This document shows, one piece after another, positions 937 through 51,419 of a stretch of 64,000 nt of DNA (position 1 is its first letter; the number at the start of each line of letters is the position of its first letter). The notes beneath the pieces are model-generated. The model was not told where the DNA came from. It searched no databases and saw nothing but the letters and a program-made list of their open reading frames with translations. Source of the stretch: Thermoflexus hugenholtzii JAD2 (GTDB lineage: Bacteria > Chloroflexota > Dehalococcoidia > UBA2979). The position numbers were made by a program, and so were the translations under genes. The stretch lies in assembly GCA_945903275.1 (NCBI GenBank), contig CAMDNW010000009.1, positions 3,036 to 67,035 of the forward strand. Direction: 5' to 3'.

Positions 937-1557
937 ATGCTTCGCATCATCGCGGCCACATGCACCGCCTTTGCCATCGCGTTCGTCATCGCATGTGACA
1001 ACGACGCGCCCACCGCCACCACAACGGCAGTCACACCGCCAGCAACCGCCTCGGGCATAGCCACCACCGCGCCAGCCCTCATCCCCGACGCGATCTTCCT
1101 CCCCAACATCACGCCCACGCCCGCCATCCCCGGCGAGTCGATCGCCAGCACCGCCAACATCCCGCGCGCCTCGCTGCCCGTCGCCGAGTTCTCCCGCGGC
1201 GGCAACGTCATCGCCACCCTCCCCATCGAGGTGCCTCCGCGCGACCAGTACAGCATCGGCCTTTCCGGCCGCCGCACCCTCGGTGACGAGCGTGGCATGC
1301 TCTTCCATTACGCCGACAAGGGTGGTTCGTTCTGGATGAAGAACACCCACATCAACCTCTCCATTGCCTTCGTCGCCCGCGACGAAACCATCGTCGATAT
1401 CCGCGACATGGAGGCTGAATCGACCACCCTCGTCACCCCCCGCGCCGACTACCAGTACGCCATCGAGGCCCCAGCCGACTGGTACCTCCGCCACGGCATC
1501 CGCATCGGCGACCGTGCCCCACTCGCCTTCCCGCTCCCCTACTACCTCGCGAACTGA
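937..1557 (+). CDS. DUF192 (COG1430) family lipoprotein
   Basis: The N-terminal signal ends in a VIAC lipobox and is followed by a Thr/Pro/Ala-rich linker. The C-terminal region carries the DUF192 hallmark MLFHY...FWMKNTHINLSIAFV...DETIVDI. Confidence 0.75.
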   Translation: MLRIIAATCTAFAIAFVIACDNDAPTATTTAVTPPATASGIATTAPALIPDAIFLPNITPTPAIPGESIASTANIPRASLPVAEFSRGGNVIATLPIEVPPRDQYSIGLSGRRTLGDERGMLFHYADKGGSFWMKNTHINLSIAFVARDETIVDIRDMEAESTTLVTPRADYQYAIEAPADWYLRHGIRIGDRAPLAFPLPYYLAN

Positions 1558-1566
1558 AGCCAACCG

Positions 1567-1909
1567 ATGAGCGACGACTTCTATTGCGACGAAGCATTGA
1601 GCGGCAACACGAAGATCAACATCGTCATCGAGACTGGTGACGTGCCGCCTTCCACCACACAAGGCCCTTTTGGCCTGTGCACATCGTGGTGAACACCAAG
1701 ATGCATGTGCCATCGCTGAGCGACTTGGTGCCGCCTCTGAGAGCATCCTGCCCGTACTCCTTACGGTCGTTCGAGAAGTCGCAAAGCAGGTGACTGAGGA
1801 ACATGGCACATGCTGCGTGCTCACGAACTTCGGCCAGTACTAGGATTTCAAACACCTCCATGTTCACGTGTCCTCGGGCGAGCCACTCAATCGTGAGTGT
1901 CCTGCCTGA
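1567..1909 (+). pseudogene. HIT-family (histidine triad) hydrolase, degraded by frameshifts and an in-frame TAG
   Basis: The N-terminus MSDDFYCDEALSGNTKINIVIETGDV resembles HIT starts (MSDCIFCKI...). It terminates after about 40 codons. A second frame carries LLTVVREVAKQV...GTCCVLTNFGQY, then an in-frame TAG at 1841..1843, then the histidine triad DFKHLHVHVSSG. Confidence 0.55.
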
Positions 1910-1951
1910 TCGGGCCGGCATGGACTGTGACTGAAATAAGAGGGACGACAG

Positions 1952-2509
1952 ATGGGGCGACTACTACTCGCACGCCATTGCCAGGCGGCGTGGTTAGAGG
2001 ACAACAAGTCACGGCCACTGTCTGAACAGGAGCTGGAACAAGCGCAAGCGCTCGGCGCCTGATTGCGAGAGTCGTGGTTGGTCGATGGCATCGTCAGCAG
2101 CCCGTATCGGCGCGCCATCGATACGATCGCCCCGTTTGTGGCTGCATCAGCCCGGGAGATTGCGCTTGACGAACGGCTCCGGGAGCGCGAGGGGACCTTC
2201 TTGGCGGCAATCGCAGATCACATCGCCGCTGCGGAAGCATGCTTCACTGACCATTCACTGTGTCTCGAAGGCTCGGAAACCGGCTTCGAGACACAGGAAC
2301 GGGCTTGGGCGGCAATCGAGGGGATGTTGCAGTCTTCGTACGCCTTGCCGGTGCTCGTGTCGCACGGACAGCTCCTGAGCTCCACGCTCGCGCGCATCGA
2401 TGGGACAACGGGCCTTGGCCGCTGGCGGTCCATGACAACGCCGGATGTATTCCTGCTGGAATCGGTTGAACCGAGTACTTGCCGTGTCCAACAAGTATGG
2501 CCGGGGTGA
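1952..2509 (+). pseudogene. Histidine phosphatase (phosphoglycerate-mutase family) interrupted by an in-frame TGA
   Basis: MGRLLLARHCQAAWLEDNKSRPLSEQELEQAQALGA, then TGA at 2060..2062, then LRESWLVDGIVSSPYRRAIDT... The RHG catalytic motif reads RHC. The stop sits where family members have a conserved Trp (GAWL), so a TGG to TGA change is implied. Confidence 0.6.
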
Positions 2510-2642: not shown

Positions 2643-3935
2643 GTGTCGGAGCCCTCCAGACCGGTGCACGATCCACTGGCGGCCCTGCGCCAGACCGACT
2701 TCCGCAAGTTCTCGCTGGCCCGCTTCGCGTCTGCCTCCGCGCAGACCATGTTTCAGGCCGCGCTCGCTTGGCAGGTCTACGCGATCTCCGGTGAGGCCCT
2801 CCAACTCGGCATCCTCGGCCTCGTCCGCTTCGCACCGCAACTCGCGGCCACCTTCGTCGCCGGCGCGGTCGCCGACTCCTACGACCGCAAGCGCATCGTC
2901 CTCATCTCACAGGCCATCCACGCCGCCTGCTCGCTCGTGCTCGCCATCGCCAGTGCCGGCGGCTGGGCCACGCTCCCCATCATCTACGCGCTCGTCGTGC
3001 TGCTCGCGCTCGCCAACGCCTTCGAGAATCCCGCGAGGCAGGCGCTGCTCCCCTCCATCGTCCACCGCGAGACCTTCCAGAACGCCATCACCGTGACCAC
3101 CACACTCCAGTCGCTCGCCTTCATCGTCGGCCCCAGCATCGCGGGCGTCGTGATCGCCGTCTCCGGCGTCGCCGGTGCGTACGCCGCCAACATCGTGCTG
3201 CTCGCCCTCTCCGTCGTCGCGCTCGCCTTCCTCCATCCCCGCCCGCTCGAAGGCGAGCGCCGCACCGTCAGCCTCGAGGCGATCCGCGAGGGCATCCGCT
3301 TCGTCTGGCGGCGTCAGGTGCTCCTCGGCGCGATGGCGCTCGACATGTTCGCGGTGATCTTCGGCGGCGCACAGGCGCTGCTACCCATCTACGCCACCGA
3401 CATCCTCCACGTCGGCAGCACCGGCTACGGCATCCTCGCCTCGTCCATGAACGCGGGCGCGCTGCTCGCCTCGGTCGTGCTTGTGATGATCCCGCAAGTG
3501 CAGCGCACCGGCCGGGTGCTGCTCATCTCCATCGTCGGCTTCGCCGGTGCGACGATCGTCTTCGGCCTCGCGCGCTCGTTCCCGCTCGCGGTGCTCGCCT
3601 ACACGCTCGTCGGCATGTCCGACCAGGTGAGCGTGGTGATGCGCCAGACCACGATCCAGCTGGCGACGCCCGACCGCCTCCGCGGCCGCGTGACCGCGAT
3701 CAACGCGCTCTTCATCGGCTCATCCAATCAACTCGGCGCGGTGCGCGCTGGCTTCATGGCCGCGGCCACCACCCCCACCATCTCTGTCGTCGGCGGCGGC
3801 TTCATGTGCCTCGGCGTCGTCGCGCTCATCGCCCTCGCGCTCCCCGGTCTCCGCCGCTACCGCATCGACGCCGCCCCCGATCCCGAGGCCGAAGAAGACA
3901 TCGAGACCGCCCGGACACCCGTAGCACTGCGATAG
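2643..3935 (+). CDS. MFS transporter (EntS/YbdA-like, 12 TM segments)
   Basis: 430-aa hydrophobic ORF with MFS signature segments (DRKRIVLISQ, loop motifs). Confidence 0.85.
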   Translation: MSEPSRPVHDPLAALRQTDFRKFSLARFASASAQTMFQAALAWQVYAISGEALQLGILGLVRFAPQLAATFVAGAVADSYDRKRIVLISQAIHAACSLVLAIASAGGWATLPIIYALVVLLALANAFENPARQALLPSIVHRETFQNAITVTTTLQSLAFIVGPSIAGVVIAVSGVAGAYAANIVLLALSVVALAFLHPRPLEGERRTVSLEAIREGIRFVWRRQVLLGAMALDMFAVIFGGAQALLPIYATDILHVGSTGYGILASSMNAGALLASVVLVMIPQVQRTGRVLLISIVGFAGATIVFGLARSFPLAVLAYTLVGMSDQVSVVMRQTTIQLATPDRLRGRVTAINALFIGSSNQLGAVRAGFMAAATTPTISVVGGGFMCLGVVALIALALPGLRRYRIDAAPDPEAEEDIETARTPVALR

Positions 3936-16940: not shown

Positions 16941-17521
16941 CTACCTCCGTCGCAGCACGCCAACAGCATCCAGAATCTCGCACAATACCGCTGCCGAGGT
17001 AAACCGCACGTCCTCCATACCCGTTGCGCGCGCCGCATCGGCGTTCGCCGGTGTGTCATCAATGAACAACACTTGCTTCGCTGAGACATCGAGGCGATCC
17101 AGCGCTATCTCGAACGCCTCCGCTGACGGCTTCAGTGCCCCAAGCTGGAACGAGAACAGCAGCGGCGGATTATCCGTGAGCACCGCAACCCGCACACGCG
17201 GCTCGATCGCGTGCACGACCGTAATCGTGTCGTCGTCCACCGTCAGCGCCGAAAGCATCACTGACTCGAACGCATCGAAGTCCAGCGCGACGCCAAGCCG
17301 CTCGTTCACAGTCTGCCGCCATTCGCTCGTGTACCGCCCCAGGTCGAAATCGCGCGTTAGCCCGGACTCCCACACCCGTGCCTGCACCTCGAGCTCCGGC
17401 AACCCGCTTCATCGCACAAGCGTCGCCAGCCGCGGCCCCGGCCCCGGCCCCGGCCCCGGCTCGAACCGGCACACCACGCCACCAAGGTCGAAGAGCACTA
17501 CCGAGACCATCCTGACCATTC
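16941..17521 (-). pseudogene. HAD-family hydrolase with an in-frame TGA and an internal (GGCCCC)n microsatellite
   Basis: MVRMVSVVLFDLGGVVCRFEP (HAD motif I), then GPGPGPGP encoded by the repeat, then RLATLVR, then TGA at 17409..17411, then SGLPELEV...FIDDTPANADAA (motif IV) in the same frame. The stop sits at a likely Trp position. Confidence 0.55.
17434..17460. repeat. (GGCCCC)4.5 hexanucleotide microsatellite inside the HAD pseudogene
   Basis: Direct tandem repeat visible in the sequence. Confidence 0.9.
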
Positions 17522-24473: not shown

Positions 24474-24479
24474 CCGTGA

Positions 24480-25140
24480 CGATGCTCGCCGCAGGTTCGA
24501 TTCACGTGACCATCGGCAGAAGCTCAGATTGGGTTGGATTGGTCTGCTGATCACGCAGATCGCCACAGTTGTGGCAGCAGTGCTCGCGTACCGACCAGTT
24601 CAACGCCAAATCAGTCAGAGAGCCGAACAACACGGGGAAACTCTGGCAGCGACATATCGCCCGGTGGTCGTACTGCGTAACCCCACAGTGAAACAAGTGC
24701 AGACCGGTGAACACTACCGTGAGGCAACATCTGGGAATCCAGGCACAGGGCCTGCGCTAAACGTTAAAATCCACGCGTGGCTAAGGAACGCATCAACTCA
24801 AGGCCTGACCAAGCAAGCCTTTCGGGCAGAGATTGATGCATCCAGGGCGGCCGTTGATTGGTGACGCCCATTCTTCGTTCACCGCATCGATGTAGTCGGC
24901 GCAGGCGACACAATCACGCAACCGATGACGATCGAGTCTTCTCTCGTGGGCGAATCCCCTAACGCCGATTGAATTCTCTACATCGCTTTCTTTGAGGATC
25001 TCGGGAAAACCCACTTCCCTCGTCAGCCACAAGACGAATAAAAGTGCGGTCATTTACTCCTGCGAACATATACGACCAGCCCTAAAGCGAATGAAGACAC
25101 CGCGCTTGTTCTTCGCGGACATTCTCCGGCACGCATGATC
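24480..25140. other. Low-GC (~50%) insert downstream of rad50 with two overlapping small ORFs (24529..24864 + and 24793..25053 -)
   Basis: An abrupt compositional drop relative to flanking ~70% GC DNA. The + ORF starts with a TM-like segment (MGWIGLLITQIATVVAAVLAY). Neither ORF is recognisable. Confidence 0.3.
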
Positions 25141-25720
25141 ACTTACGCCGCGCCACGCATTCCCATACCTGCTTCGGTCGCGCCCACCGCGTGACCTCCC
25201 GGTGTTCGAGGTTCACCAGCGCAAACCCGTCACGCAGCACCTCGCGCACCGCCGCCTCATCGAAGAACCGCTTCGTCGCCCCATACGGCGCTTCCACTTC
25301 GGACTTCCGGAAGTTGCGCTCGATCTCGATACCGCCCTACGCGCCGTACTCCACGTCATCCGTCGCGTTCACGCGGAACACGAGGACGCCGCGCGGCTTC
25401 GGCACGCGAGCGATCTCGCAGATCATTGATGCGGTAGTCGCGTGCGAAAAGTAGTAGAGCGACAACGACGCCACGACTCCATCGAAGACAGCATCGGCGA
25501 AGGGAAGCGGGCAACTGTGGTCGGCGTAGATCAGCGAGCGGGTGCCGAGCCGGACGCGTGCATCCGCCACTTCGGCCGTCGCAGGCAGATCGGTCGCCAC
25601 CACATCGAGTCCCCATGCGCGCAGCGCCTCGGCATCCTCGCCCGGCCCGCATCCGAGTTCCAACACTCGCCCCACGCCTTCGAGTGATGCGCGATGCCGT
25701 TCGAGCCAGCCGTCGCTCAT
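25054..25720 (-). pseudogene. Class I SAM-dependent methyltransferase interrupted by an in-frame TAG
   Basis: ...LELGCGPGEDAEAL...VLVFRVNATDDVEYGA, then TAG at 25337..25339, then GGIEIERNFRK...FALVNLEHREV in the same frame. Confidence 0.5.
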
Positions 25721-25722
25721 CG

Positions 25723-27290: not shown

Positions 27291-28001
27291 ATGCGCGTAC
27301 TGGTCATCGACGACGAGCCGGATATCGGAAAGGTCATATCACTGACCTTTACCTTACGCTGGCCTGACTCCGATGTTGCCCACGCAGCCAACGGCGCGCA
27401 GGGCATCGCATACGTCCGCCGCAACTCGCCGACATCGTCGTCCTCGATGTCGGCTTCCCCGATATGAATGGCTTCCAGGTGCTGGAGCAGATCCGCCGCA
27501 ACTCGGATATCCCCGTGACCGTGCTCACTGCCCACCGCGACAAGGTCGACAAAGTACGCGGCCTAGAACTCGGCGCGGACGACTACATCACCAAGCCTTT
27601 CTCGCACCTCGAACTGCTAGCCCGCGTCCGCGCGGTCATGCGCCGCACCGAGTCGCAGGTGCCCATCAGCGAAGGCCCGCCCTTCCGCGCCGGCCCTCTC
27701 TACATCGACTACGCCAGCCGCGAAGTCAGCGTGGAAGCCCCCCCGTCAAACTCACGCCCATCGAGTACGGCATCCTCTACCACCTCAGCAGTAATGAAAA
27801 CCGCGTGCTGACTTCCGCACCCTGCTCGCCAAGGCATGGGGCCGTGAGTACGTAGATGAGGTCGACTACCTGAAAGTGCACATCCAGCACCTCTGCCGCA
27901 AGCTCGGCGATAACCCGGACGACGCGCCGATGATCGTGAACGAACGCGGCGGCGGGTATAAGTTTGTTCGGCCAGACCGGGTGGCCCGGTCACAGCGATG
28001 A
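27291..28001 (+). pseudogene. OmpR-family response regulator with at least three frameshifts
   Basis: The REC domain MRVLVIDDEPDIGKV...RRNSP shifts to DIVVLDVGFPDMNGFQVLEQIRRNSDIPVTVLTAHRDKVDKVRGLELGADDYITKPF. The winged-helix region PVKLTPIEYGILYHL...RVLT shifts again to LLAKAWGREYVDEVDYLKVHIQHLCRKLGD...GGGYKFV. All three are single-nucleotide deletions; one is a 7-C homopolymer spanning 27734..27740. Confidence 0.65.
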
Positions 28002-28254: not shown

Positions 28255-29139
28255 ATGACCCAACCCCCCCACGAGCCACCGGTCACATCGCCCGAACCGG
28301 ACGACGAGGTCGCCGCGCTCCTCGCCGAGGCGCGCGCGCGCGCGCGGGCTCTCATCGACGACTCGATCCTGCAGGCTGAGCAACTCCTACAGCGCCAGTC
28401 CAACGGCCAGATGCTCGAACGCATCCGCCGCTCCGTCACTGACCTGGTCGCCGATGTCCGCTCCGTCCATTCCCGCCTCGACGACATCGAGGCACTCCTC
28501 CGCCGCCCAGCCCCGGCCGCCTACACGGCAGCACCGGTCGCTGCCGCTGCGCCCACGCCCACGCCCACGCCCACGCCCACGCCCACGCCCACGATGCAAC
28601 CGCCCCAGTCAGCGATCCTGCCCACCGCCCCCACACCTCCCGTCCCTCCGGTGGTACCGACGCCGACCGGGCCCCCCACACCGGCCACTTCGCCGGTCGC
28701 GGCTGCGCCGGGCACCGAGCCAGTACCAATACCACCAGTACCCGAGACACCCATAGCAGCCGCACCGCCACAGCCTGCGCCCGTCGCGGCAGCACCGCCT
28801 CCACCTGCGGCACCGCCTGCCGCCGCTGCCGCCGCGAACGGCAGCGCTCCATCCGGCCCCGGCTTCGACCCTGAAGGCGGCTCAGTCGCCCTCCGCGTCG
28901 CACTCGTCGCCGACTTTCAGGGCTTGATGCGGCTTCAGGACGCCCTCGTCCGCATCAACGGCATCCGCGCGGCCGGCATCGAGGCCTACGCGCAGGGCGA
29001 GGCGCGTCTCCGCCTCCAACTCGCCGAACACATCGAGCCGGAAGCGGTCGCTGCCGCCCTCAGCAACCTACTCGGCCGTCCCACAAAAGTCGCTTCGGCA
29101 TCCATGTCTGAGCGTATTCTTCACCTGACACTCGATTGA
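28255..29139 (+). CDS. Proline/threonine-rich protein with an N-terminal coiled coil and a C-terminal ~90-aa globular domain, translationally coupled to the sensor kinase
   Basis: 294 aa with a long PT/PA-rich linker including (PT)7. The stop overlaps the kinase start (ATGA). The C-terminal domain (SVALRVALVADFQGLMRLQDALVRINGIRAAGIEAY...) is unassigned. Confidence 0.6.
   Translation: MTQPPHEPPVTSPEPDDEVAALLAEARARARALIDDSILQAEQLLQRQSNGQMLERIRRSVTDLVADVRSVHSRLDDIEALLRRPAPAAYTAAPVAAAAPTPTPTPTPTPTPTMQPPQSAILPTAPTPPVPPVVPTPTGPPTPATSPVAAAPGTEPVPIPPVPETPIAAAPPQPAPVAAAPPPPAAPPAAAAAANGSAPSGPGFDPEGGSVALRVALVADFQGLMRLQDALVRINGIRAAGIEAYAQGEARLRLQLAEHIEPEAVAAALSNLLGRPTKVASASMSERILHLTLD
28551..28592. repeat. 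(GCCCAC)7 hexanucleotide microsatellite encoding (PT)7
   Basis: Perfect tandem repeat inside CDS 28255..29139. Confidence 0.9.
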
Positions 29140-30722
29140 TCCGTCCCCTCCGTCGCTCCCACAGTGGAGGGCCTGCGGCAGCCGCACTGTCGGCACAAGG
29201 GGGACTCAATATCGAAACGGCGCTCCTCACTGTCCCCGCCCGACAGCGTCTGCGTCAGGTGCACCGGCGCGGCCTCCGGTTGCTCGCCGTCGCAGTGCTC
29301 GCCGTCGCCGCGCTGCTGGCCGCGCATCTCTTCGCCGCCGTCGCCTTCATCGAGGCCAATGTCGAAGGCTTCCGCTTCTGGCTCGCCGCCGCCGATGCCG
29401 CCCTCGCCGGCCTGCTCATCCTCACACTCGCCTGGCACCTCCACCGCCTCACGCGCGAGCGCCAGCGCCACGCCTTCGTCGAGATCCTCGTCGAGACGCT
29501 CTCCGTCCCCGCCAGCATAGAGGGGACCGCCGAGGCCACCCTCGAACTCGTCATCGGCGCGGGCCTCGCGCGCGGTGGCATCGTCGCCGCCGTCAGCGGT
29601 GATGACGAGGCTGCGACGCGCCTTGTCCCCCTCGCCGTCGCCGGTGCCCGCCGCGGCTGGGCCAGCGAGGCCGGCCTCTCCGACCGTCTCGCAAACGTGG
29701 TGAGCGTCGGGCGCGAGCACACCATCGACGACCCGTGGCTGCTCGGCATGGAACTCACCATCGGCCGCCGCCCGTGGGTCGCCCGAATCCCCATCCTGCG
29801 CGGCGATGAGCGCCTTGGCCAGCTGCTGCTCGCCAGCCGCCACCGTGGCTGGCTCGGCGACCGCGCCCTGCTGCACACCATGGGCGCCATTCTCGCCGCC
29901 GCCCTCGACCACGCCCGCCAGTACCAGGTCGCCTACGAGCGCTCCCGTGACCTCGAGGAGCAGAACGCCCGCCGCCGTGAGTTCCTGTACGCCATCGCCC
30001 ACGAACTGCGCGCACCGCTCACCTCCATCCAGGCCTTCGCCAAACTGCTCGGCACCGACCAGCAACTCATGAACGGCAACAAGGAACTCCTGCTCGGCTC
30101 ACTCGCCCGCGGCGTTGACCGCCTCGCCACCTTCGTCAACGACCTCCTCGCCCTCGGCCGCATCGAGGAAGCCGGCCTCCGTGTCGAGATGCAGACGTTC
30201 GATGTCGCCGAGGCGCTTCGCGACGCGGAGACCATCCTTCGCCCCGCCTTCATGGCCCGCGACCAGTCGCTCGTCCTCGATCTTCCCGATGCACCGCTCG
30301 AAGCCTTCGGCGACGGCCGCGCCCTCGAACAGATCGTGCTCAACCTGCTCTCCAACGCCAACCGCTTCAGCCCCACCAACGGCGCCATCGTCCTCCGCGC
30401 CCACGCCGTCGATGCGCGCATCCGCATCGAGGTGCAGGACTCCGGCCCCGGCATCGACCTGCTCGATCGCCAGCGCATCTTTGAGCCGTTCTACCGTGTC
30501 CACCGCAACGGCGCACCCGAGGTGCCCGGCTCCGGCCTCGGCCTCGCCGTCGCCCGCCGCCTCACCGATATGCAGGGCGGCCACCTCTGGGTGGAGGCTG
30601 TCCCCGGCGGCACCGGCTCCCGCTTCTGCGTCGAACTACGCCTCCCCGAGGCGCCCGCTCCAGGCGGCGCTCCAGCCGCTGAGGTTGATGATGCCAAGGA
30701 GCCCAGCGCGCCGGCTGGCTGA
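29136..30722 (+). CDS. Sensor histidine kinase with two TM segments, GAF, HisKA and HATPase_c domains
   Basis: H-box FLYAIAHELRAPLTSI, N box LLSNANRFSP, G boxes DSGPGID and GSGLGLAV. Confidence 0.85.
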   Translation: MIRPLRRSHSGGPAAAALSAQGGLNIETALLTVPARQRLRQVHRRGLRLLAVAVLAVAALLAAHLFAAVAFIEANVEGFRFWLAAADAALAGLLILTLAWHLHRLTRERQRHAFVEILVETLSVPASIEGTAEATLELVIGAGLARGGIVAAVSGDDEAATRLVPLAVAGARRGWASEAGLSDRLANVVSVGREHTIDDPWLLGMELTIGRRPWVARIPILRGDERLGQLLLASRHRGWLGDRALLHTMGAILAAALDHARQYQVAYERSRDLEEQNARRREFLYAIAHELRAPLTSIQAFAKLLGTDQQLMNGNKELLLGSLARGVDRLATFVNDLLALGRIEEAGLRVEMQTFDVAEALRDAETILRPAFMARDQSLVLDLPDAPLEAFGDGRALEQIVLNLLSNANRFSPTNGAIVLRAHAVDARIRIEVQDSGPGIDLLDRQRIFEPFYRVHRNGAPEVPGSGLGLAVARRLTDMQGGHLWVEAVPGGTGSRFCVELRLPEAPAPGGAPAAEVDDAKEPSAPAG

Positions 30723-31918: not shown

Positions 31919-31952
31919 CCCCGCGAGAACAGCACGTTCGGCTGCGGCGCAA

Positions 31953-32869
31953 TCAGAGCCGTGAGCGCCCCCGGCTCCACCCACATCGAGACTCGTGTGG
32001 TGCCGATATATTCGCCGTCCGTCTGCACAGGCAGCGGCCACTCCGTCGCGATCTCGATCCGCGCCCCTCTCCCTGTCGGTAGTCGATCCCATCCCCCGCG
32101 AACGTACACAGGTCGAGCACGCCGTCGTCCGCCCGCGCTGCCGCCGTGAGCCGCGTCATCCCGCCGTACAAACGCGTGTTCCCCGTCACCGCCATCAGCA
32201 GCGGCCCGTCTAGCACCGTCCCATCGACGCTTACCGTCGCGCCCGCTGGCTCGGACCGACCGAACACATACGCCCCGATCCCCGCATACCACCCGCGCCC
32301 AAACGACCGCTTTCCCACCGCGGGAATCTGCTCCACCCGCCGCACTATCTCGGCGTCCATCCCCACGTTGCACATCAACAGGAATCGCCGCTCCGCGCCC
32401 GAAGCCACCCGTACCCGCCCCACATCCACCCGCACCCGCCGCGGTGTCGTCAGCGCGCGCACCGCGTCGCTTAGGTCGCGCGGGATCAGCACCTCGCGCG
32501 CCCACACATCCGCCGTCCCCGCTGGCAACACCCCGAGCGCCGTCCGCGTCCCCGTCAGCCCTTCGACAACTCCGAGACCGTGCCGTCATGGCCACACGCC
32601 GCCACCACATCCACGCCAGCCGCTGCGGCGCGTCGCGCGATCTCCGTCGCGTGTCCCGGCGCGCGCGTCTTCTGAATATCGACGCTCCACCACGTCGTCA
32701 CCAATGTGTCCACTGTCTCGCGCAGCAGCACGTCTTCCGGGGGCGCACGCCGCTTATACGGATTCCGCACCACCATCGTGCGCGGCGCAATGTTCATCCA
32801 TGTGTCAGCAATCAGTGCGCCGCTGTACCGCGCCTCAGCCCCATGCGCGATCGGCCATCCGCAAGTCAC
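31953..32869 (-). pseudogene. Diacylglycerol/lipid kinase (YegS/DagK family), frameshifted
   Basis: The N-terminal part ...VDVVAACGHDGTVSE (the GGDGT motif) ends at 32555. The C-terminal part VVEGLTGTRTALGVLPAGTADVW...FLLMCNVGMDAEIV is in a different frame. A single-nucleotide deletion lies near 32545. Confidence 0.6.
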
Positions 32870-40467: not shown

Positions 40468-41247
40468 TCACGCTTCCAGCAGCACCGCGCGCAGCCGCTC
40501 GTGCAGCGCGGCCGTCGAGGCTAGCATCGACCCCGGCCGCGCCGCGCCCCCTCGATCGCCGAGGTCACTCCGCCCGCCCCGCGCACGATCAAGTCGTCCG
40601 CGCTCATGTCCCACGCCTGCAACCCGTGCTCGTAGTACGCGTCCAGTCGGCCGCACGCCACCCAGCACAGGTCCAACGCCAGCGCCCCGCCCCGCCCCGC
40701 CCCGCACCCGCACCCGCACCCGAGGCAGCACGCGCGCCACCATAATCCCCTGCGCGGCCCGCCGCTCCGCGTCGTACCCGAACCCCTTTCCCACCAACGC
40801 CGTCGCGAGCACAACGAGGCCCGACGTCGCAATCGGCTCGTCATTCAATCGCGCGCCGCCACCGATGCGTGCGCTGAACATCTCGTCGTATACCGCCTCC
40901 ACCTCCGTCTCCTCTGCGACATCGACGCCAATCGAGACCACGAACGCCCGGTGTCGGTACAGGTAGTTCGTCGTCCCATCCAGCGGGTCGACCACCCACC
41001 GCACGCCCGACACGCCCTCCGCTTCCGCGGTCAGTCCTTTTTCGCCGAGGATCGCGTCATCCAGCCGCACCGCACGAATCCGTTCCGCGGCGCGGTCGGC
41101 GGCGCTCACCATGTCCGTGCGGCTGCTCTTCGTCGCCACATCGCTCCGCACGATTGACCGCACACACAGCAGCAACACCACCGCCTCGCAGGCCGTCACC
41201 ATCGAGAGCGTCAGCAGCGCCTCCGGATCAACTGACGCGGCGGTCAT
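40468..41247 (-). pseudogene. Inositol monophosphatase family (SuhB/ImpA-like) gene disrupted at an internal GC-rich microsatellite
   Basis: The N-terminal frame has ...WVVDPLDGTTNYLYRH... up to RVLPRVRVRVRGGAGRG. The C-terminal motifs ALDLCWVACGRLDAYYEHGLQAWDMSA...IVRGAGG are in another frame (ORF 40521..40844). The junction coincides with (CCCCG)4(CACCCG)3. Confidence 0.6.
40684..40722. repeat. Compound (GCCCC)4-(GCACCC)3 microsatellite
   Basis: Direct repeats visible at the frameshift point of the IMPase gene. Confidence 0.9.
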
Positions 41248-42389: not shown

Positions 42390-42465
42390 GCGCCGGTAGC
42401 TCAGGGGATAGAGCATCAGTCTTCGGAACTGAGGGTCGGGGGTTCGAATCCCTCCCGGCGCACCA
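42390..42465 (+). tRNA. tRNA-Arg (anticodon TCG) with encoded CCA
   Basis: Cloverleaf folded by hand: acceptor GCGCCGG/CCGGCGC, D arm GCTC...GAGC, anticodon stem TCAGT/ACTGA with loop CTTCGGA, T arm GGGGG-TTCGAAT-CCCTC. Confidence 0.8.
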
Positions 42466-42659
42466 ACAATTCAGCCACTTCGGACTTGGGTGACTAAGTA
42501 CCCGGGACGCCAATGGCCCTAACTTGGCCCTAATTCTCTCAGCTTGAGACGATGGCCAGCAGCGCATCGTGGCAACAATAGGTCCGAACGCACATCGGCA
42601 TCACTGTTCAGAAACGACGAAATCGTAACGGTACCGTTCCGGGTGGCAGCGTCCCTGGC

Positions 42660-43070
42660 GTGACTGTCGGTCGAGCTGGCGGACGAGGGGCCACATCTGT
42701 GGATCTTCGACGACTAGCAGGTGTGGGGCACGCACTCGCTAGTACGCCTGGCATGGGATCACTCGTCGCGTGGTACGGCGCAGGCCTGACGATTAACAAT
42801 ACCCAGTTCTCGATCGAAGCCGATGCTGCGCGAATTGCAAAACCGGTACTCATTCTCCACGGAGACCTTGACCAGCCTGGACTGACGTCATTCGCGCGTA
42901 AATTCGCAAGCGCTCGCAAGTCCGCAGGGAAGCAAGTAGAGCTCGTGATCTATCCCGGAGTTGGGCACGCCTGGGATCAGCCTCGCTCTCCGATCTACGT
43001 TTACGACGCGAATGCGACTGCCGATGCTCGATCACGAACGATTGCATTTTTTACTGCAGCTGCCCGATGA
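42660..43070 (+). pseudogene. Dienelactone-hydrolase-family alpha/beta hydrolase, C-terminal fragment only
   Basis: ...PVLILHGDLDQPG...VELVIYPGVGHAWDQ...ADARSRTIAFF corresponds to the C-terminal third of DLH. The N-terminal catalytic half is absent. It sits at the tRNA-proximal edge of the low-GC island. Confidence 0.45.
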
Positions 43071-43765
43071 AGTAGACGAGGTTCCGTCAGAACTCAGTGC
43101 TCGCCGCCGAGTTCGGCCAGGAACGAGAGGAGAAGCAGCCCCGTTTCGAATCTGAGACCAAGTGCCGGGAAGACCAGATCAGGCGCCTTCTAGGCCCTGG
43201 CCACTGAGTTCTGACAGAACTCATCCATTAGCGACCAGTCTGGCCGAACCTACGTCCGGAAGCGGACCGCCATCGAAGCAGTTGAGGCAAGTCACTTGGG
43301 AGAAGTCGCCAGTCAGGTTCCGGCGGCTTCTAGTCATGCACGGCGAGACCCCGCCGCCATCGCGATGGAGCTTGTCGACTCCCTGCTCGCCTTTCGGTTC
43401 CGGAGCAGGCAACCCTGTGAGAACAGACACTTCTCTACGGCTGGCCTGCCGGACATGCGAACAGTATGAGCGGGCGTCAAAGCCCGGACAGTCACATATG
43501 CCCTTCAGCGAACGGTCGGTTCGTAGCATCAACTCAACCGCGTGGGGCCGCGATGTATGACTCATGGAAGGAATTACGACGACTTTCTCCCACGTCGTGA
43601 TCAGCGGGGTAGGCCTGACAGTCGATGGGATACCCAGCATTGCCTCAAAGAAGCGCTTGAACAAATCCATCTCCTTCGGTGTGTCGAAACACCGACGCGT
43701 GGAATGCCGCGGAACCACTAGGGGTAGTGGTTCCGCGGCGGCGGCAATGACGAGTGACCGAGTAG

Positions 43766-46309
43766 CTAACTGACGATAGGTGCAGTCTCGTCCGCCCACA
43801 CAATGCCGGTTTCCCGAAACAACCGGATGGACGGCGCATCGTAGCTGAGCTCTTCCAGAATCGCGTCGGTCTGCTCGCCTGCCACCACGCCCGGACCGTA
43901 CCGGCCTGGAGTCTCGGAGAACGTAACGAGGGGGCCCCAGCGCTGGTAATCACCGAGTATTCGATGCTTCGCGCGGATCGCGAACGCGTTCTCCTTGATC
44001 TGCTCGGAGCGCCAGAAAAACTGTCCTGCACTCTGGAAATCGTCTGCCCGGACGCAGCCGACTCCTGCCTCCAGCAACGCGTGCTCCCATTCATCCGCAC
44101 TACGCTGTGCGAAGACCGGCGTGAGGAACGTCACAAGATCCTGTGCGTGGCTCGCGCGGCTTTCTCGATCCTTGAACCGACTGTCATTGCGCAGGTCATC
44201 CCGTTGGAGCGCAGAGCACAGGCACGCCCACATGTCGTCCGACTCCGCGCTGAGGCATACCCAACTGTCCTTCGCTCGATACAGCCGCTGCAGCGGTCCG
44301 ATTCCCATGAGGGATGAATCGAGCGTCGGACGTGCTGGCTTCCCGGCATAGGAGAGGAAATCGTCCGCGTTTGCGTACGCGTTCGCCCCAAGCATACTCA
44401 CGAACACTTCCTGCCCTGCACCGGTTCGCCGTCGGGCGTGGAGCGCCAGCATCGCCGCTGTTGCGACGACAACTGACGTGTTGGGGTCGGGGTTTGACTC
44501 GTTCGCGCGGTAGAACCGTCGCGCAGCCTCCCGCAACGCATTGATCGATGATAGATCACCTTGAGGCCAGCCTTCACCGACCTGCATCAGCGCGCCACCG
44601 TCAACTGCCCCAGGGATGGGATGCGCTGCAGGACGAGGAGCACCCTCGCCGTCAGGCCCGTAGCCGCTCACGCTCAGCCAGATGATGTCCGGACGGATCG
44701 CCTTCGCCTGCTCATACCCGATCCCCAATCGTTCGGGCACACCTGGCCGGTAGTTGTGGACGATCATGTCGGCCTGCACGACGAGGCGGCGCACGATCTC
44801 CTGACCAGCCTCGGTCTTCAGATCGATGCAGATGCTTTCTTTGCTTGCTGTCGTCTTCGAGGAGCCAAGGTATGCCGTTAAGCCCGCACCGCCCATGCCC
44901 CGCATCGGGTCGCCACCATTCGTTGGCTCGACCTTGATGACCCGAGCGCCGAGGTCTCCAAGCAGCGAGGCTCCGAGCGGAGCGGCGATGATCGTTGCAA
45001 ACTCGAGCACGGTCAGCCCAGCAAGTGGGGCGGCCCGATCGCCGGTCACCGTTCGTGTCGGCTGAGGAGCCGGGGGCTCGCCAAGCACCTCGGCGGTGTG
45101 CTCTCCTACGCGCGGTGCTGGCCGGCCGATTCGCGCCGGAGTATCGCGCAGAAGCGCGAGGGGGCCGAGCTGACGGACCACTCCTAGATCTGGGTCGGCC
45201 GCCTCAATGACTTCGCCGTTCGCCACCATGTCCGCGTGGTGTAGCCCGGTCTGTGCGGTGCCAACAAGGTCCGCCGCGACGTTGCCGCTGGCCTTGAACT
45301 CGTCCATCAGTTCGTCAGCCGTACACTCTTGTGCCGCGAGCAGCATCGCGTTCCGAATTTCCTCGCGTGCTTCCTCGGAGACGCCATTGGGCGCTCCCGC
45401 GTAGCGAGGATCAGCGAGGATTTTGTCGGCGAGGCCCAACGACACGATCGATGCCTGAAAGAGGTGCTCCAGTAGGTTGGCGAGCTGAATCCAGCGGCCA
45501 TCGGACGACATGATCGGCTGGTACCCGAGCGTGGGCTGCGCATCCGGGGAGTAGTACCGCGCAAACAGTTCGCTCTGTGCCTTCTCAGGGAAGCGCTCAA
45601 GCATCTGCTCGCGAACAAGGTTGTTGAGGTCATACGGGAACATTCCCTGCAGCAGGCTCGTCTCAACAAGTTGCCCGAACCCGCTGCGCTCGCGAACCTC
45701 GAGTGCGGCCAGAATCCCTGTCGTCGCCGACTGTGCTGCGGCGTGCGTCCCGACCTGCACCGCCTCGAAGCCGGGGCCTTCGCGCCGGTCGATGAACGCC
45801 ATCGCCCACATTCTGGCTGACTTCGCGGCGACGAGCGTTTCGTCCGCCGGGTACTGCGCATACGGCCCACGCGGACCCCAGCCAGTGACTGAACAATAAA
45901 CGAGCCCTGGATTCGCGCCCTTCAGACTCTCGTAATCGAGTCCAAATTCCTGCGCTTCGCCCGGACGGAAGGACGCCACCACGACATCCGCCGACAGCGC
46001 GAGCTGTCTCGCCGCGTTCTTACCCTCGGTGGCGCTGAGATCGAGTACGACGCTCCGTTTGCCTCGAAGCCACATTGGCGCGGCCGCATGCGCGCGAATC
46101 GGGTCGCCGCCCGGGCCCTCGATCTTGACGACATCGGCTCCGAAGTCGGCCAACACCATCGTCGCGATCTCTGCTGCACCGCCCGATCCGATCTGGATAA
46201 TTCGCAGGTCGTCGCATGGCCCAGTCAATCGGGTTGCCCTTTCTCTATTCGCCAGATGAAAGCTGGCGGAGTCAGCGGGACCCACGAAGACGCGGGTCGA
46301 GCACATCAC
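43766..46309 (-). CDS. Fused tandem family-III CoA-transferase (two CaiB/BaiF domains in one 847-aa polypeptide)
   Basis: Two repeats of the GPxxGxRVLDL...ADxGAxVIKVE N-terminal signature (LRIIQIGSGGAAEIATMVLADFGADVVKIE and LTVLEFATIIAAPLGASLLGDLGARVIKVE). Confidence 0.8.
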   Translation of the reverse strand: MMCSTRVFVGPADSASFHLANRERATRLTGPCDDLRIIQIGSGGAAEIATMVLADFGADVVKIEGPGGDPIRAHAAAPMWLRGKRSVVLDLSATEGKNAARQLALSADVVVASFRPGEAQEFGLDYESLKGANPGLVYCSVTGWGPRGPYAQYPADETLVAAKSARMWAMAFIDRREGPGFEAVQVGTHAAAQSATTGILAALEVRERSGFGQLVETSLLQGMFPYDLNNLVREQMLERFPEKAQSELFARYYSPDAQPTLGYQPIMSSDGRWIQLANLLEHLFQASIVSLGLADKILADPRYAGAPNGVSEEAREEIRNAMLLAAQECTADELMDEFKASGNVAADLVGTAQTGLHHADMVANGEVIEAADPDLGVVRQLGPLALLRDTPARIGRPAPRVGEHTAEVLGEPPAPQPTRTVTGDRAAPLAGLTVLEFATIIAAPLGASLLGDLGARVIKVEPTNGGDPMRGMGGAGLTAYLGSSKTTASKESICIDLKTEAGQEIVRRLVVQADMIVHNYRPGVPERLGIGYEQAKAIRPDIIWLSVSGYGPDGEGAPRPAAHPIPGAVDGGALMQVGEGWPQGDLSSINALREAARRFYRANESNPDPNTSVVVATAAMLALHARRRTGAGQEVFVSMLGANAYANADDFLSYAGKPARPTLDSSLMGIGPLQRLYRAKDSWVCLSAESDDMWACLCSALQRDDLRNDSRFKDRESRASHAQDLVTFLTPVFAQRSADEWEHALLEAGVGCVRADDFQSAGQFFWRSEQIKENAFAIRAKHRILGDYQRWGPLVTFSETPGRYGPGVVAGEQTDAILEELSYDAPSIRLFRETGIVWADETAPIVS

Positions 46310-47210
46310 GGATCGTATCCCCGAGCATATTGAACGACAGCACCGTCACGCTGATCGCGAGTCCGGGCAGGATAGCGAGCCACGGTGCCGACTCCATGTA
46401 CTGCCGCCCGGAGGTGGAGAGCATCAGCCCCCATGATGGGTTGGGAGGCTGAGTCCCCAGTCCCAGAAAGCTGAGGCCGGACTCTGCAAGGATGGCCCCC
46501 CCGAGCGAACCGGAAGCAAGAATGAGGATCGGAGCGACAATATTCGGCAGGACGTGACGCGCCATGATGCGGCGCGGGGTCGCCCCGAGCGCGTGGGCCG
46601 CCTCGACGTAGACGTTCGCCTTCACCGCCAGCACCGCGCTTCTCACAACGCGCGACGACGAAGGAATCGTAACGATCGCGATGGCGAGCAGTGCGTTCGC
46701 GGTGTTCGCCCCGAGGACAGATACGATTGCCATCGCAAGCACAATGGCAGGAATAGCCAGCATGCCGTCGACCGCCCGCTGTACGATCAAGTCGAACGTT
46801 CCGCCGAGGAACCCACTCACGAGCCCGAGCACGGTGCCGCTGACCGTCCCGAGCCCCACTGCGATCAGTCCGACGTACAAGGAGATGCGCGCACCCCAAA
46901 TGATCCGGGATAGCTGATCACGACCGATGTTGTCCGTGCCGAAGGGATACTTCCAACTCGGGCTGAGCAGCTTCTCGCGCGACGTGGCGATGGGGTCATA
47001 TGGCGCGATGATTGGTGCGAACACCGCGAGCAGCACCACGATAAGGATCACCGTTCCGAAGATGGCACCGACGGGATGCGTGACCACTCGGCGCAGGGCG
47101 TCCAGAGTGGGTGGAAGCGACCTGCGCGCTGCGATGCGCGCAGTGGCACTCGTGGCAGACACTGTACTTGCGGTACCTGCGCCGTCTCCGCCGCGAACCA
47201 TGTTCGCCAA
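46272..47210 (-). CDS. ABC transporter permease (DppC/OppC-like)
   Basis: 6 TM helices and an EAA-like loop. Confidence 0.85.
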   Translation of the reverse strand: MANMVRGGDGAGTASTVSATSATARIAARRSLPPTLDALRRVVTHPVGAIFGTVILIVVLLAVFAPIIAPYDPIATSREKLLSPSWKYPFGTDNIGRDQLSRIIWGARISLYVGLIAVGLGTVSGTVLGLVSGFLGGTFDLIVQRAVDGMLAIPAIVLAMAIVSVLGANTANALLAIAIVTIPSSSRVVRSAVLAVKANVYVEAAHALGATPRRIMARHVLPNIVAPILILASGSLGGAILAESGLSFLGLGTQPPNPSWGLMLSTSGRQYMESAPWLAILPGLAISVTVLSFNMLGDTIRDVLDPRLRGSR

Positions 47211-47231
47211 ACTCTGGCCCCTTTCCTGCGC

Positions 47232-48182
47232 CTAGTGCAGCCGAATCCGAGGATCGAGAAGTCCGTATGACATGTCGATAGTCAGGTTCGCCAGCACGAA
47301 CAGCGTTGCCATGACCATCACTGAGCCCTGCACTACCGGGTAGTCCCGGTGGGTGACGGCATCAAGGAGCAGCCGCCCCTGTCCGGGCAGCGAGAAGATC
47401 TGCTCGACAATGACCAACCCACCGATGAGCCCGGTGAGTTGTGCGCCGATGATCGTGATCACCGGGATCATGCTGTTCCGCAGCGCGTGGCGGATGACGA
47501 CGTCTATCTCACGCAGGCCTTTTGCGCGAGCCGTACGGACGTAGTCCTCCCTCAACACGTCGAGCATGGCGGACCGGGTCATGCGCGCGCTCACGGCGGA
47601 CAGGCGGTAACCAACTATCAACGCCGGGAAGATCATCGACTGGAAGTTCTTGACCGGATCAGTAAGCGGCGAATACCAGCCAAACTCCGGCAACCATCCG
47701 AGATATTTTGACAGAACCAGTAGCAGGATAGTGGCTAGCCAGAAGTCGGGCGCGGAGAGCCCGATGACCGAGAACAGGCGGCTGCCGAAATCGATCACCG
47801 TATCCTGACGCACAGCAGCGATGACTCCGAGAGGAATCGCTAGCATGAACGCGATCGACACTGCCAGTATGGAAATCTCAAGCGACACCTTCATCCGCTG
47901 CAGGATGGTCGGCAGGACGGGTTCGCGAGTCCATAGCGACGTGCCGAGGTCACCCTGGACTAGGTGCCCAAGCCAATCCGCGTATTGCGCGAGAAACGGC
48001 TTGTCGATGCCGAGTTCGATACGCATTTGGGCAAGTGTCTCCGGGCTGACGTAGCCGCCCTCTGCGACGAGCGCCATCACAGCATCCCCGGGGATGAGCC
48101 GGACTAACGAAAAGATGAACAGCGAGACAAACAGGAGTGACGGGACCGCGAGCAGCAGTCGCCGAGCGATATAAGGACCCAC
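47232..48182 (-). CDS. ABC transporter permease (DppB/OppB-like)
   Basis: MGPYIARRLLLAVPSLLFVSLFIFSLVRLIPGD... is a classic DppB start. Confidence 0.85.
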   Translation of the reverse strand: MGPYIARRLLLAVPSLLFVSLFIFSLVRLIPGDAVMALVAEGGYVSPETLAQMRIELGIDKPFLAQYADWLGHLVQGDLGTSLWTREPVLPTILQRMKVSLEISILAVSIAFMLAIPLGVIAAVRQDTVIDFGSRLFSVIGLSAPDFWLATILLLVLSKYLGWLPEFGWYSPLTDPVKNFQSMIFPALIVGYRLSAVSARMTRSAMLDVLREDYVRTARAKGLREIDVVIRHALRNSMIPVITIIGAQLTGLIGGLVIVEQIFSLPGQGRLLLDAVTHRDYPVVQGSVMVMATLFVLANLTIDMSYGLLDPRIRLH

Positions 48183-48256
48183 CGGTCCCCCTTCCGCTGC
48201 TCAAGCACAGGACAGGAGGCAGCGGATCAGCCGCTATCTCCTGTCCTGTGCCCGTA

Positions 48257-50023: not shown

Positions 50024-50639
50024 ATGCTCATGCCTCCCTTGGGCTTAGGAACGACCCCAACTGCTGTCTCTCGCGATGGAGTTCGTACAGATTGATTTGC
50101 CTGCGAGACCCACTCTCTTCAGAACGACCTTCCCGCAGTTCATTCCGTTTATTTCGGTGCGATGGCTACCAATCGAGCCTTACAGCACCGGACTGCCAAA
50201 ATTGACGCGAAACCAAACTTTCGATTTCGAACCCTTCGACACTGCTAGGCAACAGCGTCGACATCAACGCCTATTGCATGCACGGCACTGCGTTGAAAAC
50301 CTATGCACGTGGCGGATATTACGTGCGTAGGCTTCACGATTGCAACTGCCTATAAGTCTGCCAAAATTAAAATCTTTGCCGCGTTTCTCGCACAGAACGT
50401 GATTGGGATCGGTGGACGGGTGCATGGCACACCGAGTGGCATCACGAATCGCCGTGTCCGACAATCCTAATGAGCGGAAGTGCCTGATCCGGCTCCTCGC
50501 AGGAGAACTCTTCCTCGCACATGTTCTCGTGCGCCTACGAGCGCTACCAATTCTGGCAGGAACAAGCCCGACTCCGGGGCTCATCGACTGAGTAGCGTTC
50601 CATCAACAGAACGTCATCCGCCCCGCCGGTATTCGCCGC

Positions 50640-51419
50640 TCACGAACCCAGCCGCCCGCACCAGTACACCTCCGCGCGATGCGGCAGCCCAATCGTCGGC
50701 CGCCCTCGCGTCGCCGGGTGTGCATCGAGGAACGCCGCCACCCGCGCCAGCACCTCTTGCCGCCGCGCCTCCGGCAGTGCCGCCACGAAACTCGTCGAAG
50801 CCGTCCGCGCCACCGCCGTCGCCCGATCCACCTCGAACTCGAATGGGCACTCCGCGAACTCCAGCGGGCTGAACAGCGCCGCCCCCGGCTCGTCCTCGAA
50901 CGCTGCCTGCCATCGCGTCTCCGCGTACCGCCGCACATCACCCTCGCGATAGGTATCCACGAGGCGCACCAGCTCCGCCACCCACTCCACCGTCTCGTCT
51001 CGCTGCAACCACACTAGGCCCAGCCGTCCGCCCGGCCGTAACACCCGGTGCAACTCCCGCACCGCCGCCAGCCCGTCGAACCAGTGGAACGCCGTTCCGA
51101 TGGTTACCGCGTCCACGCTCGCGGTCGCCAGCGGTAGCACTTCCGCGTTTGCGCGCACGATCGGCACGCCCGGCTGGATCCGCGCGAACTCCGCGCACAT
51201 CTCCGCCGCCGGCTCGACGCCCAGCACACGCGCGCCGCCGATGAACTGCCGCCCTAATTTCCCCGTCCCCGTCGCGAGGTCGACAAGGCGTGTCTCCGAT
51301 GTGATCCGCAACTGCTCGCGCAGCATCGCCACCACCTCTGGCGGATAGTCTGGCCGCCCCCGTTCATACGCCGAACTCGCCGCCGCGAACCCCCGCGCCG
51401 CTACATCGTTCATCGACAT
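50640..51419 (-). CDS. Class I SAM-dependent methyltransferase
   Basis: LVDLATGTGKL motif I, ...AFHWF. Confidence 0.75.
   Translation of the reverse strand: MSMNDVAARGFAAASSAYERGRPDYPPEVVAMLREQLRITSETRLVDLATGTGKLGRQFIGGARVLGVEPAAEMCAEFARIQPGVPIVRANAEVLPLATASVDAVTIGTAFHWFDGLAAVRELHRVLRPGGRLGLVWLQRDETVEWVAELVRLVDTYREGDVRRYAETRWQAAFEDEPGAALFSPLEFAECPFEFEVDRATAVARTASTSFVAALPEARRQEVLARVAAFLDAHPATRGRPTIGLPHRAEVYWCGRLGS

Follow-up and report, generated by a model that had tools for sequence, protein, structure and literature searches.

A 64-kb stretch of bacterial DNA with a GC content of 67%, hereafter the window, includes near its start two adjacent genes, one for a HIT (HinT-like) protein and the other for a histidine phosphatase, each of which is interrupted by an in-frame stop codon. 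The question raised by this locus is whether these interruptions reflect the decay of the two genes, as an earlier note on the same DNA proposed, or errors in the sequence, reassigned stop codons or genes that remain functional in spite of the stops, and, if the genes are indeed dead, what made the stops. The host is an uncultured, high-GC population of Dehalococcoidia (Tepidiformales-like) that is present in many metagenomes; proteins of this widespread population were detected on at least 23–24 contigs. The gene pair is flanked by an intact DUF192 gene upstream and an intact MFS transporter gene downstream (Table 1). The DUF192 gene terminates in TGA, 9 nt ahead of the HIT start, at the same position as its ortholog in the sister lineage described below, with a pairwise dN/dS of 0.22. 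The MFS protein is identical on 7 contigs from independent assemblies, and a search with this protein led to Dehalococcoidia/Tepidiformales MAGs, the top match showing 78% amino acid identity. Among the best 48 GTDB loci identified by this search, none contained a DUF192, HIT or phosphatase gene near the MFS gene; the closest of these loci (L001) encompasses arsenic-resistance genes at the corresponding spot, and its tblastx comparison with the window yielded uninformative noise. In public assemblies, no genes are called between DUF192 and MFS except for a spurious 78-aa ORF. A literature search for pseudogenes in Tepidiformales produced nothing specific.

Table 1. Flanking genes, disrupted genes and individual lesions in the 64-kb window (coordinates in the window; the ortholog is the intact copy from the sister lineage).
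Feature	Coordinates	Strand	Details
DUF192 gene, upstream flank, intact	937..1557	+	Pfam PF02643, E 2e-20
HIT (HinT-like) pseudogene	1567..1912	+	frame-corrected translation matches PF01230, E 8e-12
Frameshift 1, 1-bp deletion (T missing)	1645..1646	+	ortholog GTGCTCGC vs window GTGC-CGC
Frameshift 2, 1-bp deletion (C missing)	1723..1724	+	ortholog GACCTTGG vs window GA-CTTGG
In-frame TAG for CAG (Gln)	1841..1843	+	just 5' of HLHVHV triad; CCAGG -> CTAGG
Histidine phosphatase (His_Phos_1, RHC subtype) pseudogene	1952..2509	+	PF00300, E 8.5e-20
RHC catalytic motif (Arg8-His9-Cys10)	1973..1981	+	ancestral, not lesion
In-frame TGA for TGG (Trp37)	2060..2062	+	CCTGG -> CCTGA
MFS transporter, downstream flank, intact	2643..3935	+	PF05977 and PF07690
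HAD hydrolase pseudogene	16941..17510	-	in-frame TGA 17409-17411, 21-aa deletion, GPGPGP repeat insertion
OmpR-type response-regulator pseudogene	27291..28001	+	frameshifts ~27431, ~27740, ~27813
DAGK/YegS lipid-kinase pseudogene	31948..32797	-	two frameshifts, ~32570 and ~32070
Inositol-monophosphatase-family pseudogene	40468..41247	-	two frameshifts
Dienelactone hydrolase C-terminal fragment	42582..43070	+	Pfam DLH match, profile 117-215 of 217 only

One line of evidence comes from a sister lineage in which the same locus is intact. When the repaired phosphatase was used as a protein query, intact 185-aa relatives with up to 86% identity were retrieved. The contig that encodes the best of them, L083 (ENA ERZ27265265), also carries DUF192 and an intact gene for a 114-aa HIT protein and, beyond the intact phosphatase gene, the beginning of the gene for the MFS transporter; it is 87% identical at the DNA level to positions 605–2900 of the window. 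The comparison with orthologues that the earlier note had called for is thus available at a syntenic locus, and its reading of two adjacent, stop-interrupted genes is borne out: in the base-by-base alignment, there are four lesions, all on the window side, and L083 reads CAG and TGG where the window has stops. The TGA codons that end the DUF192, HIT and phosphatase genes occupy the same positions as in the orthologs. The nucleotide identity of the HIT and phosphatase genes to their L083 copies (87% and 90%, respectively) is similar to that of the flanking genes. Judged by sequence comparison, the resemblance of the re-joined proteins to the intact syntenic proteins far exceeds chance. Compared with the working copies that the sister lineage retains at the locus, both genes are disabled, as is characteristic of pseudogenes.

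The HIT gene is the more extensively damaged of the two. Its coding sequence is spread over three frames (1567–1645, 1646–1723 and 1724–1912), the first of which reads MSDDFYCDE...GDV, the second AFHHTRPFWPVHIVV... and the third ...VLTNFGQY*DFKHLHVHV.... The frame-corrected translation belongs to the HIT family, with a score of 46 bits against PF01230 (cut-off 21.5), and is 82% identical, over the full length, to the intact 114-aa ortholog (P0029) from the syntenic locus; the histidine triad (HxHxHxx), in the form HLHVHV, is encoded 3' of the TAG. In the L083 alignment, the frameshifts that the earlier note mentioned resolve into two 1-bp deletions, with the ortholog CTC matched by C-C in the window in the first case and GAC by GA- in the second, so that, together with the in-frame TAG, the reading frame is interrupted three times. 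The residue lost to the TAG, just ahead of the triad, is Gln in the L083 ortholog and likewise in each of 14 HIT homologs that are more distant.

In the phosphatase gene, there is one nonsense codon and no frameshifts: the translation, MGRLLLARHCQ...ALGA*LRESW..., is a single frame broken once, at codon 37. The translation belongs to branch 1 of the histidine phosphatase superfamily (71.7 bits against PF00300, cut-off 21.7), and the protein is 84–86% identical, over the full length, to the intact 185-aa protein (P0001) of the syntenic locus. The RHG-type motif and the second conserved histidine are both present: in a comparison of 20 homologs, R8, H9 and H138 are invariant, and Cys10 is nearly invariant (at least 90%). 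The RHC form of the motif, which the earlier note listed among the lesions, is accurately read but is the norm in this subfamily. The position of the TGA was recognized correctly as that of a tryptophan, which is found there in most homologs, and the third base of the codon is G (TGG) in 4 of the 4 outgroup DNAs. The change from TGG to TGA strips the phosphatase of everything past the catalytic RHC motif. For neither protein did NCBIfam point to a specific function, every match being far under the cut-off.

The two genes also show relaxed constraint on the branch that bears the lesions. When substitutions in the phosphatase gene were polarised with the four outgroup DNAs, 33 mapped to the window branch versus 12 to the sister branch (relative-rate chi-square 9.8, p = 0.002), with 21 versus 6 nonsynonymous and 12 versus 6 synonymous changes; because the synonymous changes, too, are elevated about two-fold, part of the acceleration may stem from something other than lost constraint. 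Derived replacements at outgroup-conserved positions number 8 versus 2 in HIT and 15 versus 2 in the phosphatase (window versus sister in each case), that is, 23 versus 4 combined (p = 3e-4). Five of the 8 HIT replacements (P44T, A83T, R85C, L90F and S96F) affect sites that are invariant in the 14 distant homologs, and those in the phosphatase include G27E, A63V, R104C and G118A. The pairwise dN/dS of HIT, 0.24, is by itself not neutral-like. The pairwise dS is about 0.2–0.35, which, along with the flank-like identity of the two genes, implies that the decay is recent on that scale.

Changes from GC to AT outnumber the opposite ones on the window branch (19 versus 7), and both stops are GC to AT transitions (CAG to TAG and TGG to TGA) with respect to the intact syntenic ortholog. 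The earlier note took the fact that every nonsense change is of this kind for the signature of decay. The observation is accurate but near-tautological as a signature and says little: stop codons contain no C, so any transition that creates one is necessarily C to T or G to A. Of the 97 substitutions that could introduce a stop into the intact ortholog, 28 are transitions. The companion proposal of a relaxed-selection or reductive genome likewise divides into relaxed constraint on the pair, which is evident from the excess of replacements at conserved residues, and a reductive genome, which is beyond the reach of 64 kb.

The pair differs from its surroundings in composition. The GC content of the HIT and phosphatase genes is 0.56 and 0.62, respectively, with GC skew of about 0 and GC3 of about 0.65–0.8, compared with GC of 0.67–0.72, GC skew of -0.19 to -0.32 and GC3 of 0.85–0.92 in the flanks. 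The intact L083 copies stand out from their flanks in the same way and are equally atypical, so the low GC predates the decay and is not its product. In other genomes, the phosphatase matches the composition of the host and is located in different neighbourhoods. Because GC, GC3, GC skew and CCWGG density set the pair apart from the host DNA in each of the two lineages, composition favours, as the somewhat more probable history, horizontal acquisition of the pair before the two lineages split. Under this scenario, the imported pair, as a dispensable accessory operon, would now be in the process of being lost in one of the descendant lineages. Irrespective of its origin, HIT took the two 1-bp deletions and the CAG to TAG change in the window lineage, and the phosphatase the TGG to TGA change, whereupon replacements at otherwise conserved residues built up in both genes, with an AT-biased spectrum.

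What produced the two stops is a separate question. Both stop sites are CCWGG in the L083 ortholog, with the TAG in HIT resulting from C to T at the inner cytosine of the motif and the TGA in the phosphatase from a change at the outer cytosine. Of the 97 single substitutions able to introduce a stop into the intact genes, just 7 fall within CCWGG; two stops would both land there with a probability of 0.005–0.011, a figure to be read in light of the fact that the link was noticed after the fact and is based on two stops and a 2.3-kb sister alignment. In this alignment (~2.3–2.4 kb), every one of the 7 CCWGG sites present in L083 has been lost from the window (p about 0.003), 5 of them by C to T or G to A at a motif cytosine. 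Two of the lost sites are in the functional MFS gene and disappeared through C to T; one MFS site changed at the outer cytosine, and additional C to T losses at the inner cytosine are located at 2201 and 2768. A CCAGG site was gained in the window at 1981.

The depletion of the motif extends over the entire window, where 72 CCWGG sites were observed versus 137–152 expected (observed/expected ratio of 0.47–0.52); in a ranking of 908 pentamers by depletion, this reverse-complement pair comes second, behind GGWCC. The density of CCWGG is 1.06/kb in the native DNA of the window compared with 3.81/kb for 36 related loci taken together (572 kb with the same GC), among which the minimum, 2.12/kb, is still above the window. 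The per-strand observed/expected ratio, 0.52, is the lowest of 29 sequences, the relatives spanning 0.67–1.18 and the closest GTDB relative, L001, showing 0.97; thus, the window lineage is the only one to show the depletion when set beside 28 related loci, each 10 kb or longer. GC skew was rejected as an explanation for the avoidance of palindromes, given that relatives with a skew of 0.13–0.18 have normal CCWGG ratios (1.04–1.16). The under-representation of this palindrome, both against the Markov expectation and against relatives, is the pattern of restriction-site avoidance, and several other palindromes, including GGWCC, AGCT, GGGCCC and CTCGAG, are strongly under-represented in the window as well. 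The 64-kb window showed no gene for a DNA methyltransferase or a restriction enzyme.

With both stops in destroyed CCWGG sites and the motif purged in this lineage alone, we tentatively entertain, as a possibility that falls short of being probable, that the stops are by-products of a raised rate of CCWGG loss rather than random hits. The raised rate could reflect restriction-site avoidance or the hypermutability of methylated cytosine. Simple deamination of the inner cytosine is unsupported by the counts of its products: CTWGG/CCWAG are in excess by only about 0.24/kb in the window, against a loss of 2.75/kb of CCWGG. Given the outer-cytosine position of the TGA change and the missing surplus of products, selection against CCWGG appears to fit at least as well as deamination. 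A more specific version, which we consider rather unlikely, is that a CCWGG-specific pressure that arose after the split removed about 70% of the sites and that the purge itself made the killing stops in the recently imported, CCWGG-rich DNA. Such a pressure might come from a restriction-modification or methylation system that the lineage either newly acquired or was exposed to, in which case motif purging would be a direct cause, not a bystander, of the loss of newly acquired genes.

The competing account of the stops, and the one implicit in the earlier note, is that they are random hits of general AT-biased mutation on useless genes, with the CCWGG context coincidental. It concerns solely the cause of the two stops and is compatible with the pseudogene status of both genes. 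We rate this account as coming close to an even proposition: GC to AT transitions dominate the whole window branch, the motif link is post hoc, the phosphatase stop arose at the outer C, the deamination products show no excess, and a CCAGG site was even gained. Against coincidence stand the low probability of finding both stops in CCWGG by chance, the complete loss of the sister sites, two of them by C to T in the functional MFS gene, and the success of an independent prediction, namely, that CCWGG would turn out to be among the most depleted pentamers, and in this lineage only.

Regardless of the origin of the stops, the HIT and phosphatase genes are very probably real, fixed pseudogenes that result from ordinary decay. 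Residual function, through leaky read-through of UGA, a restart at TTG 2063 or HIT activity from split peptides, appears highly improbable. In favour of it, the phosphatase gene has a single disabling lesion, a 148-aa ORF that restarts right after the TGA and a nucleotide identity to the ortholog (90%) that is not below that of the flanking genes; but the restart product would have no RHC nucleophile, and G27E, A63V, R104C, G118A and F144S all affect invariant or nearly invariant residues. Furthermore, position 2016 is C or T depending on the assembly, so that a further damaging replacement, Pro22Leu, at a nearly invariant proline is still segregating. To yield a product, HIT would need two frame corrections in addition to read-through.

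Errors of assembly or sequencing, with the genes intact in the organism, are still less credible. One of the 1-bp deletions does fall in a CC dinucleotide, a context in which some platforms drop bases. Nevertheless, all four lesions are identical in 4 of the 4 independent assemblies that cover the region (L089, L090, L091 and L093; the assemblies are NCBI GCA_947484815.1, Logan SRR12053438, Logan ERR5863202 and ENA ERZ27265271), which come from different runs and assemblers; in one of these, the lesions are unchanged although the aligned stretch contains 27 differences elsewhere. Reproducibility was judged here on assembled sequence, and because independent assemblies share the same lesions, these are not assembly errors. 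Moreover, long conserved genes in the window are unbroken (GyrA, 835 aa; SbcC, ~1000 aa; GroEL), and error would leave the 23 derived replacements at conserved residues unexplained. The last alternative, recoding, with TGA read as Trp and TAG as Gln and both genes translated through, would account for stops located exactly at Trp and Gln positions, as expected of a local reassigned code, but is excluded because the 41 intact genes of the window end in TAG (17), TGA (14) or TAA (10), that is, in TGA or TAG in 31 cases, without a single internal stop, and because it could not rescue the two HIT frameshifts or explain why DUF192, HIT and the phosphatase all terminate in TGA where their orthologs do; to our knowledge, lineages with reassigned TGA are unlike a 67% GC genome.

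Apart from the HIT-phosphatase pair, the window contains at least five broken genes (Table 1), as detected by Pfam matches that halt mid-profile and resume in another frame; a GC3 frame plot proved too noisy for a frameshift census and was dropped in favour of the Pfam coordinates across frames. The HAD hydrolase locus is split into gene calls of 36 aa and 148 aa in 6 of the 6 independent assemblies examined; the ancestral codon of its stop could not be inferred, the aligned position being variable. The response-regulator pseudogene adjoins an intact histidine kinase gene, and the re-joined protein yields complete Response_reg and Trans_reg_C matches and is 77–79% identical to intact 237-aa relatives. 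The DAGK/YegS gene is split alike in 5 of the 5 independent assemblies covering this locus. The first frameshift of the inositol-monophosphatase gene is inside a (GGGGC)n repeat, the copy number of which varies from one assembly to another. The dienelactone hydrolase fragment is located on the margin of a block of foreign composition, after a tRNA-Arg gene (42390–42465). Assemblies covering these additional loci split or truncate the genes identically. Several candidates were discarded: the suspected in-frame stops at 35150 and 40468 are each followed by a ribosome-binding site and an ATG and separate distinct genes, at 54993 one ORF terminates and is followed by a distinct gene that lacks a clear ATG, and the low-skew block at 42–50 kb is not an rRNA operon, Rfam detecting only two tRNAs.

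Altogether, the window contains 7 disrupted genes versus 41 verified intact ORFs (~55 genes in all). Seven broken genes among about 55 is high for a free-living bacterium. The tally for this single 64-kb window is suggestive of a locally high pseudogene load, of which the HIT-phosphatase pair would be one instance.

The earlier note read the gene decay correctly, but this decay is ordinary, and only two features may merit more work, namely, the coincidence of the stops with CCWGG and the local concentration of broken genes. The annotation is tidied in that the DUF192-MFS interval consists of two dead genes, and the locus provides a clean, datable case in which an abundant, uncultured member of Dehalococcoidia gained an accessory pair of genes and then lost it, with an intact sister copy for comparison. 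Should the CCWGG link and the pseudogene density extend genome-wide, this lineage would become a natural system for the study of the influence of motif avoidance or methylation on gene loss and of whether an exceptional burden of pseudogenes can be sustained by a free-living bacterium in the environment.

Several known systems resemble this locus to different degrees. Stop codons are reassigned in Mollicutes (TGA to Trp), in SR1/Gracilibacteria (TGA to Gly) and in some phages (TAG to Gln), and the stops at Trp and Gln positions recall these codes; unlike under such codes, all three stop codons terminate genes in the window, and none occurs in-frame in conserved genes. Dcm methylates the inner cytosine of CCWGG. 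The amber hotspots of lacI, CAG to TAG changes in CCAGG reportedly described by Coulondre and colleagues in 1978, are said to be the classical case of 5-methylcytosine mutability. The HIT stop is exactly of this type, an amber codon produced by CCAGG to CTAGG at the inner cytosine, whereas the TGA stop and one MFS site changed at the outer cytosine, and the window shows no excess of CTWGG/CCWAG. Cytosines in Dcm sites are prone to deamination (PMC10710837). Restriction-site avoidance resembles the present case in that several short palindromes are depleted, the substitutions are varied, and the imported DNA is richer in sites; the inactivation of genes by stops that arise from site purging is not a standard part of that picture. 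Such avoidance of palindromes in prokaryotic genomes was reportedly documented by Gelfand and Koonin in 1997 and by Rocha and colleagues in 2001.

The reductive genomes of Mycobacterium leprae and Rickettsia (PMC11078800) share with the window the clustering of disrupted genes, many with multiple lesions; here, in contrast, a single window is concerned, host restriction, IS expansion and genome shrinkage are not in evidence, and the population is widespread. As summarized in PMC11078800, bacterial pseudogenes originate by failed or transient horizontal transfer and by disruption of native genes (Liu et al. 2004; Lerat & Ochman 2004), the failed-transfer route being cited there from Liu et al. 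2004. Such pseudogenes are close counterparts of the HIT-phosphatase pair: genes whose composition is atypical carry nonsense point mutations and frameshifts of 1 bp, a close relative retains the ortholog intact, and constraint is relaxed. Nothing essential differs, the host in the present case being an uncultured environmental member of Dehalococcoidia rather than a pathogen or a symbiont.

The decay is not confined to the probably imported HIT hydrolase and histidine phosphatase pair: the DAGK/YegS, HAD hydrolase and IMPase-family pseudogenes are native in composition, and therefore the decay reaches beyond imported DNA. The IMPase-family gene contains a tandem (GGGTGC)3(GGGGC)3-4 repeat in which the number of GGGGC copies varies from assembly to assembly: the window has 4 and L094 and L097 have 3, and the reading frame is restored in neither state. 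The HAD gene has gained a GPGPGP insertion near position 17440 through a similar expansion, (CCGGGG)n. The gene for an OmpR-type response regulator is wrecked by three frameshifts; the histidine kinase gene located about 1.1 kb downstream is intact (487 aa), and because the regulator was destroyed and the kinase retained, the latter is an orphaned sensor. Yet another decayed gene may be represented by a 1.25-kb stretch with a weak coding signal, where the calls in public assemblies are limited to one of 86 aa and a short methyltransferase of 127 aa.

Features of the window outside the HIT hydrolase and phosphatase pair
Feature	Coordinates	Remarks
HAD hydrolase pseudogene	16941-17510	native composition
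Weakly coding stretch	24474-25722	
OmpR-type response regulator	27291-28001	
Histidine kinase	29112-30722	
DAGK/YegS pseudogene	31948-32797	native composition
IMPase-family pseudogene	40468-41247	native composition
Tandem repeat	40690-40735	in IMPase-family gene
tRNA-Arg	42390-42465	
8-kb block	region 42390-50640	after tRNA-Arg
DLH fragment		in 8-kb block
859-aa ORF		in 8-kb block; two CoA-transferase III domains
ABC transporter		in 8-kb block; peptide/nickel type

The dead phosphatase is polymorphic between assemblies at position 2016, with C in the window and L090 and T in L089, L091 and L093, all four being contigs that carry the same lesions; the C to T change replaces the nearly invariant Pro22 with Leu. 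The pseudogene lineage and the one whose HIT and phosphatase genes are intact were found together in the same two samples (contigs L084 and L093 in ENA ERZ27265271; L083 and L101 in ERZ27265265).

The GC skew of the plus strand is about -0.2 across the window (1-64000), and the skew at third codon positions is mostly between -0.3 and -0.66 in genes of either strand, with weaker values, -0.09 and -0.16, in two native genes. This strand asymmetry is extreme, and unusually strong for a genome of 67% GC. In the block that follows tRNA-Arg, which is probably a genomic island, the skew is absent, GC content is 0.61 and GC3 is 0.72-0.76.

Measured against the related loci L001-L035 and L106-L110, the window (1-64000) avoids palindromes broadly. 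The observed/expected values in the window and the relatives, respectively, are 0.40 vs 0.92 for AGCT, 0.34 vs 0.71 for GGWCC and 0.30 vs 0.87 for GGGCCC; within the window, the values for CTCGAG, CTGCAG, CCGCGG and GGCGCC are 0.34, 0.38, 0.41 and 0.41. The avoidance of GGWCC and AGCT is common to the window and its closest relatives, L001 and L003, whereas that of CCWGG, the motif disrupted by both stop mutations of the dead pair, is absent from these two.
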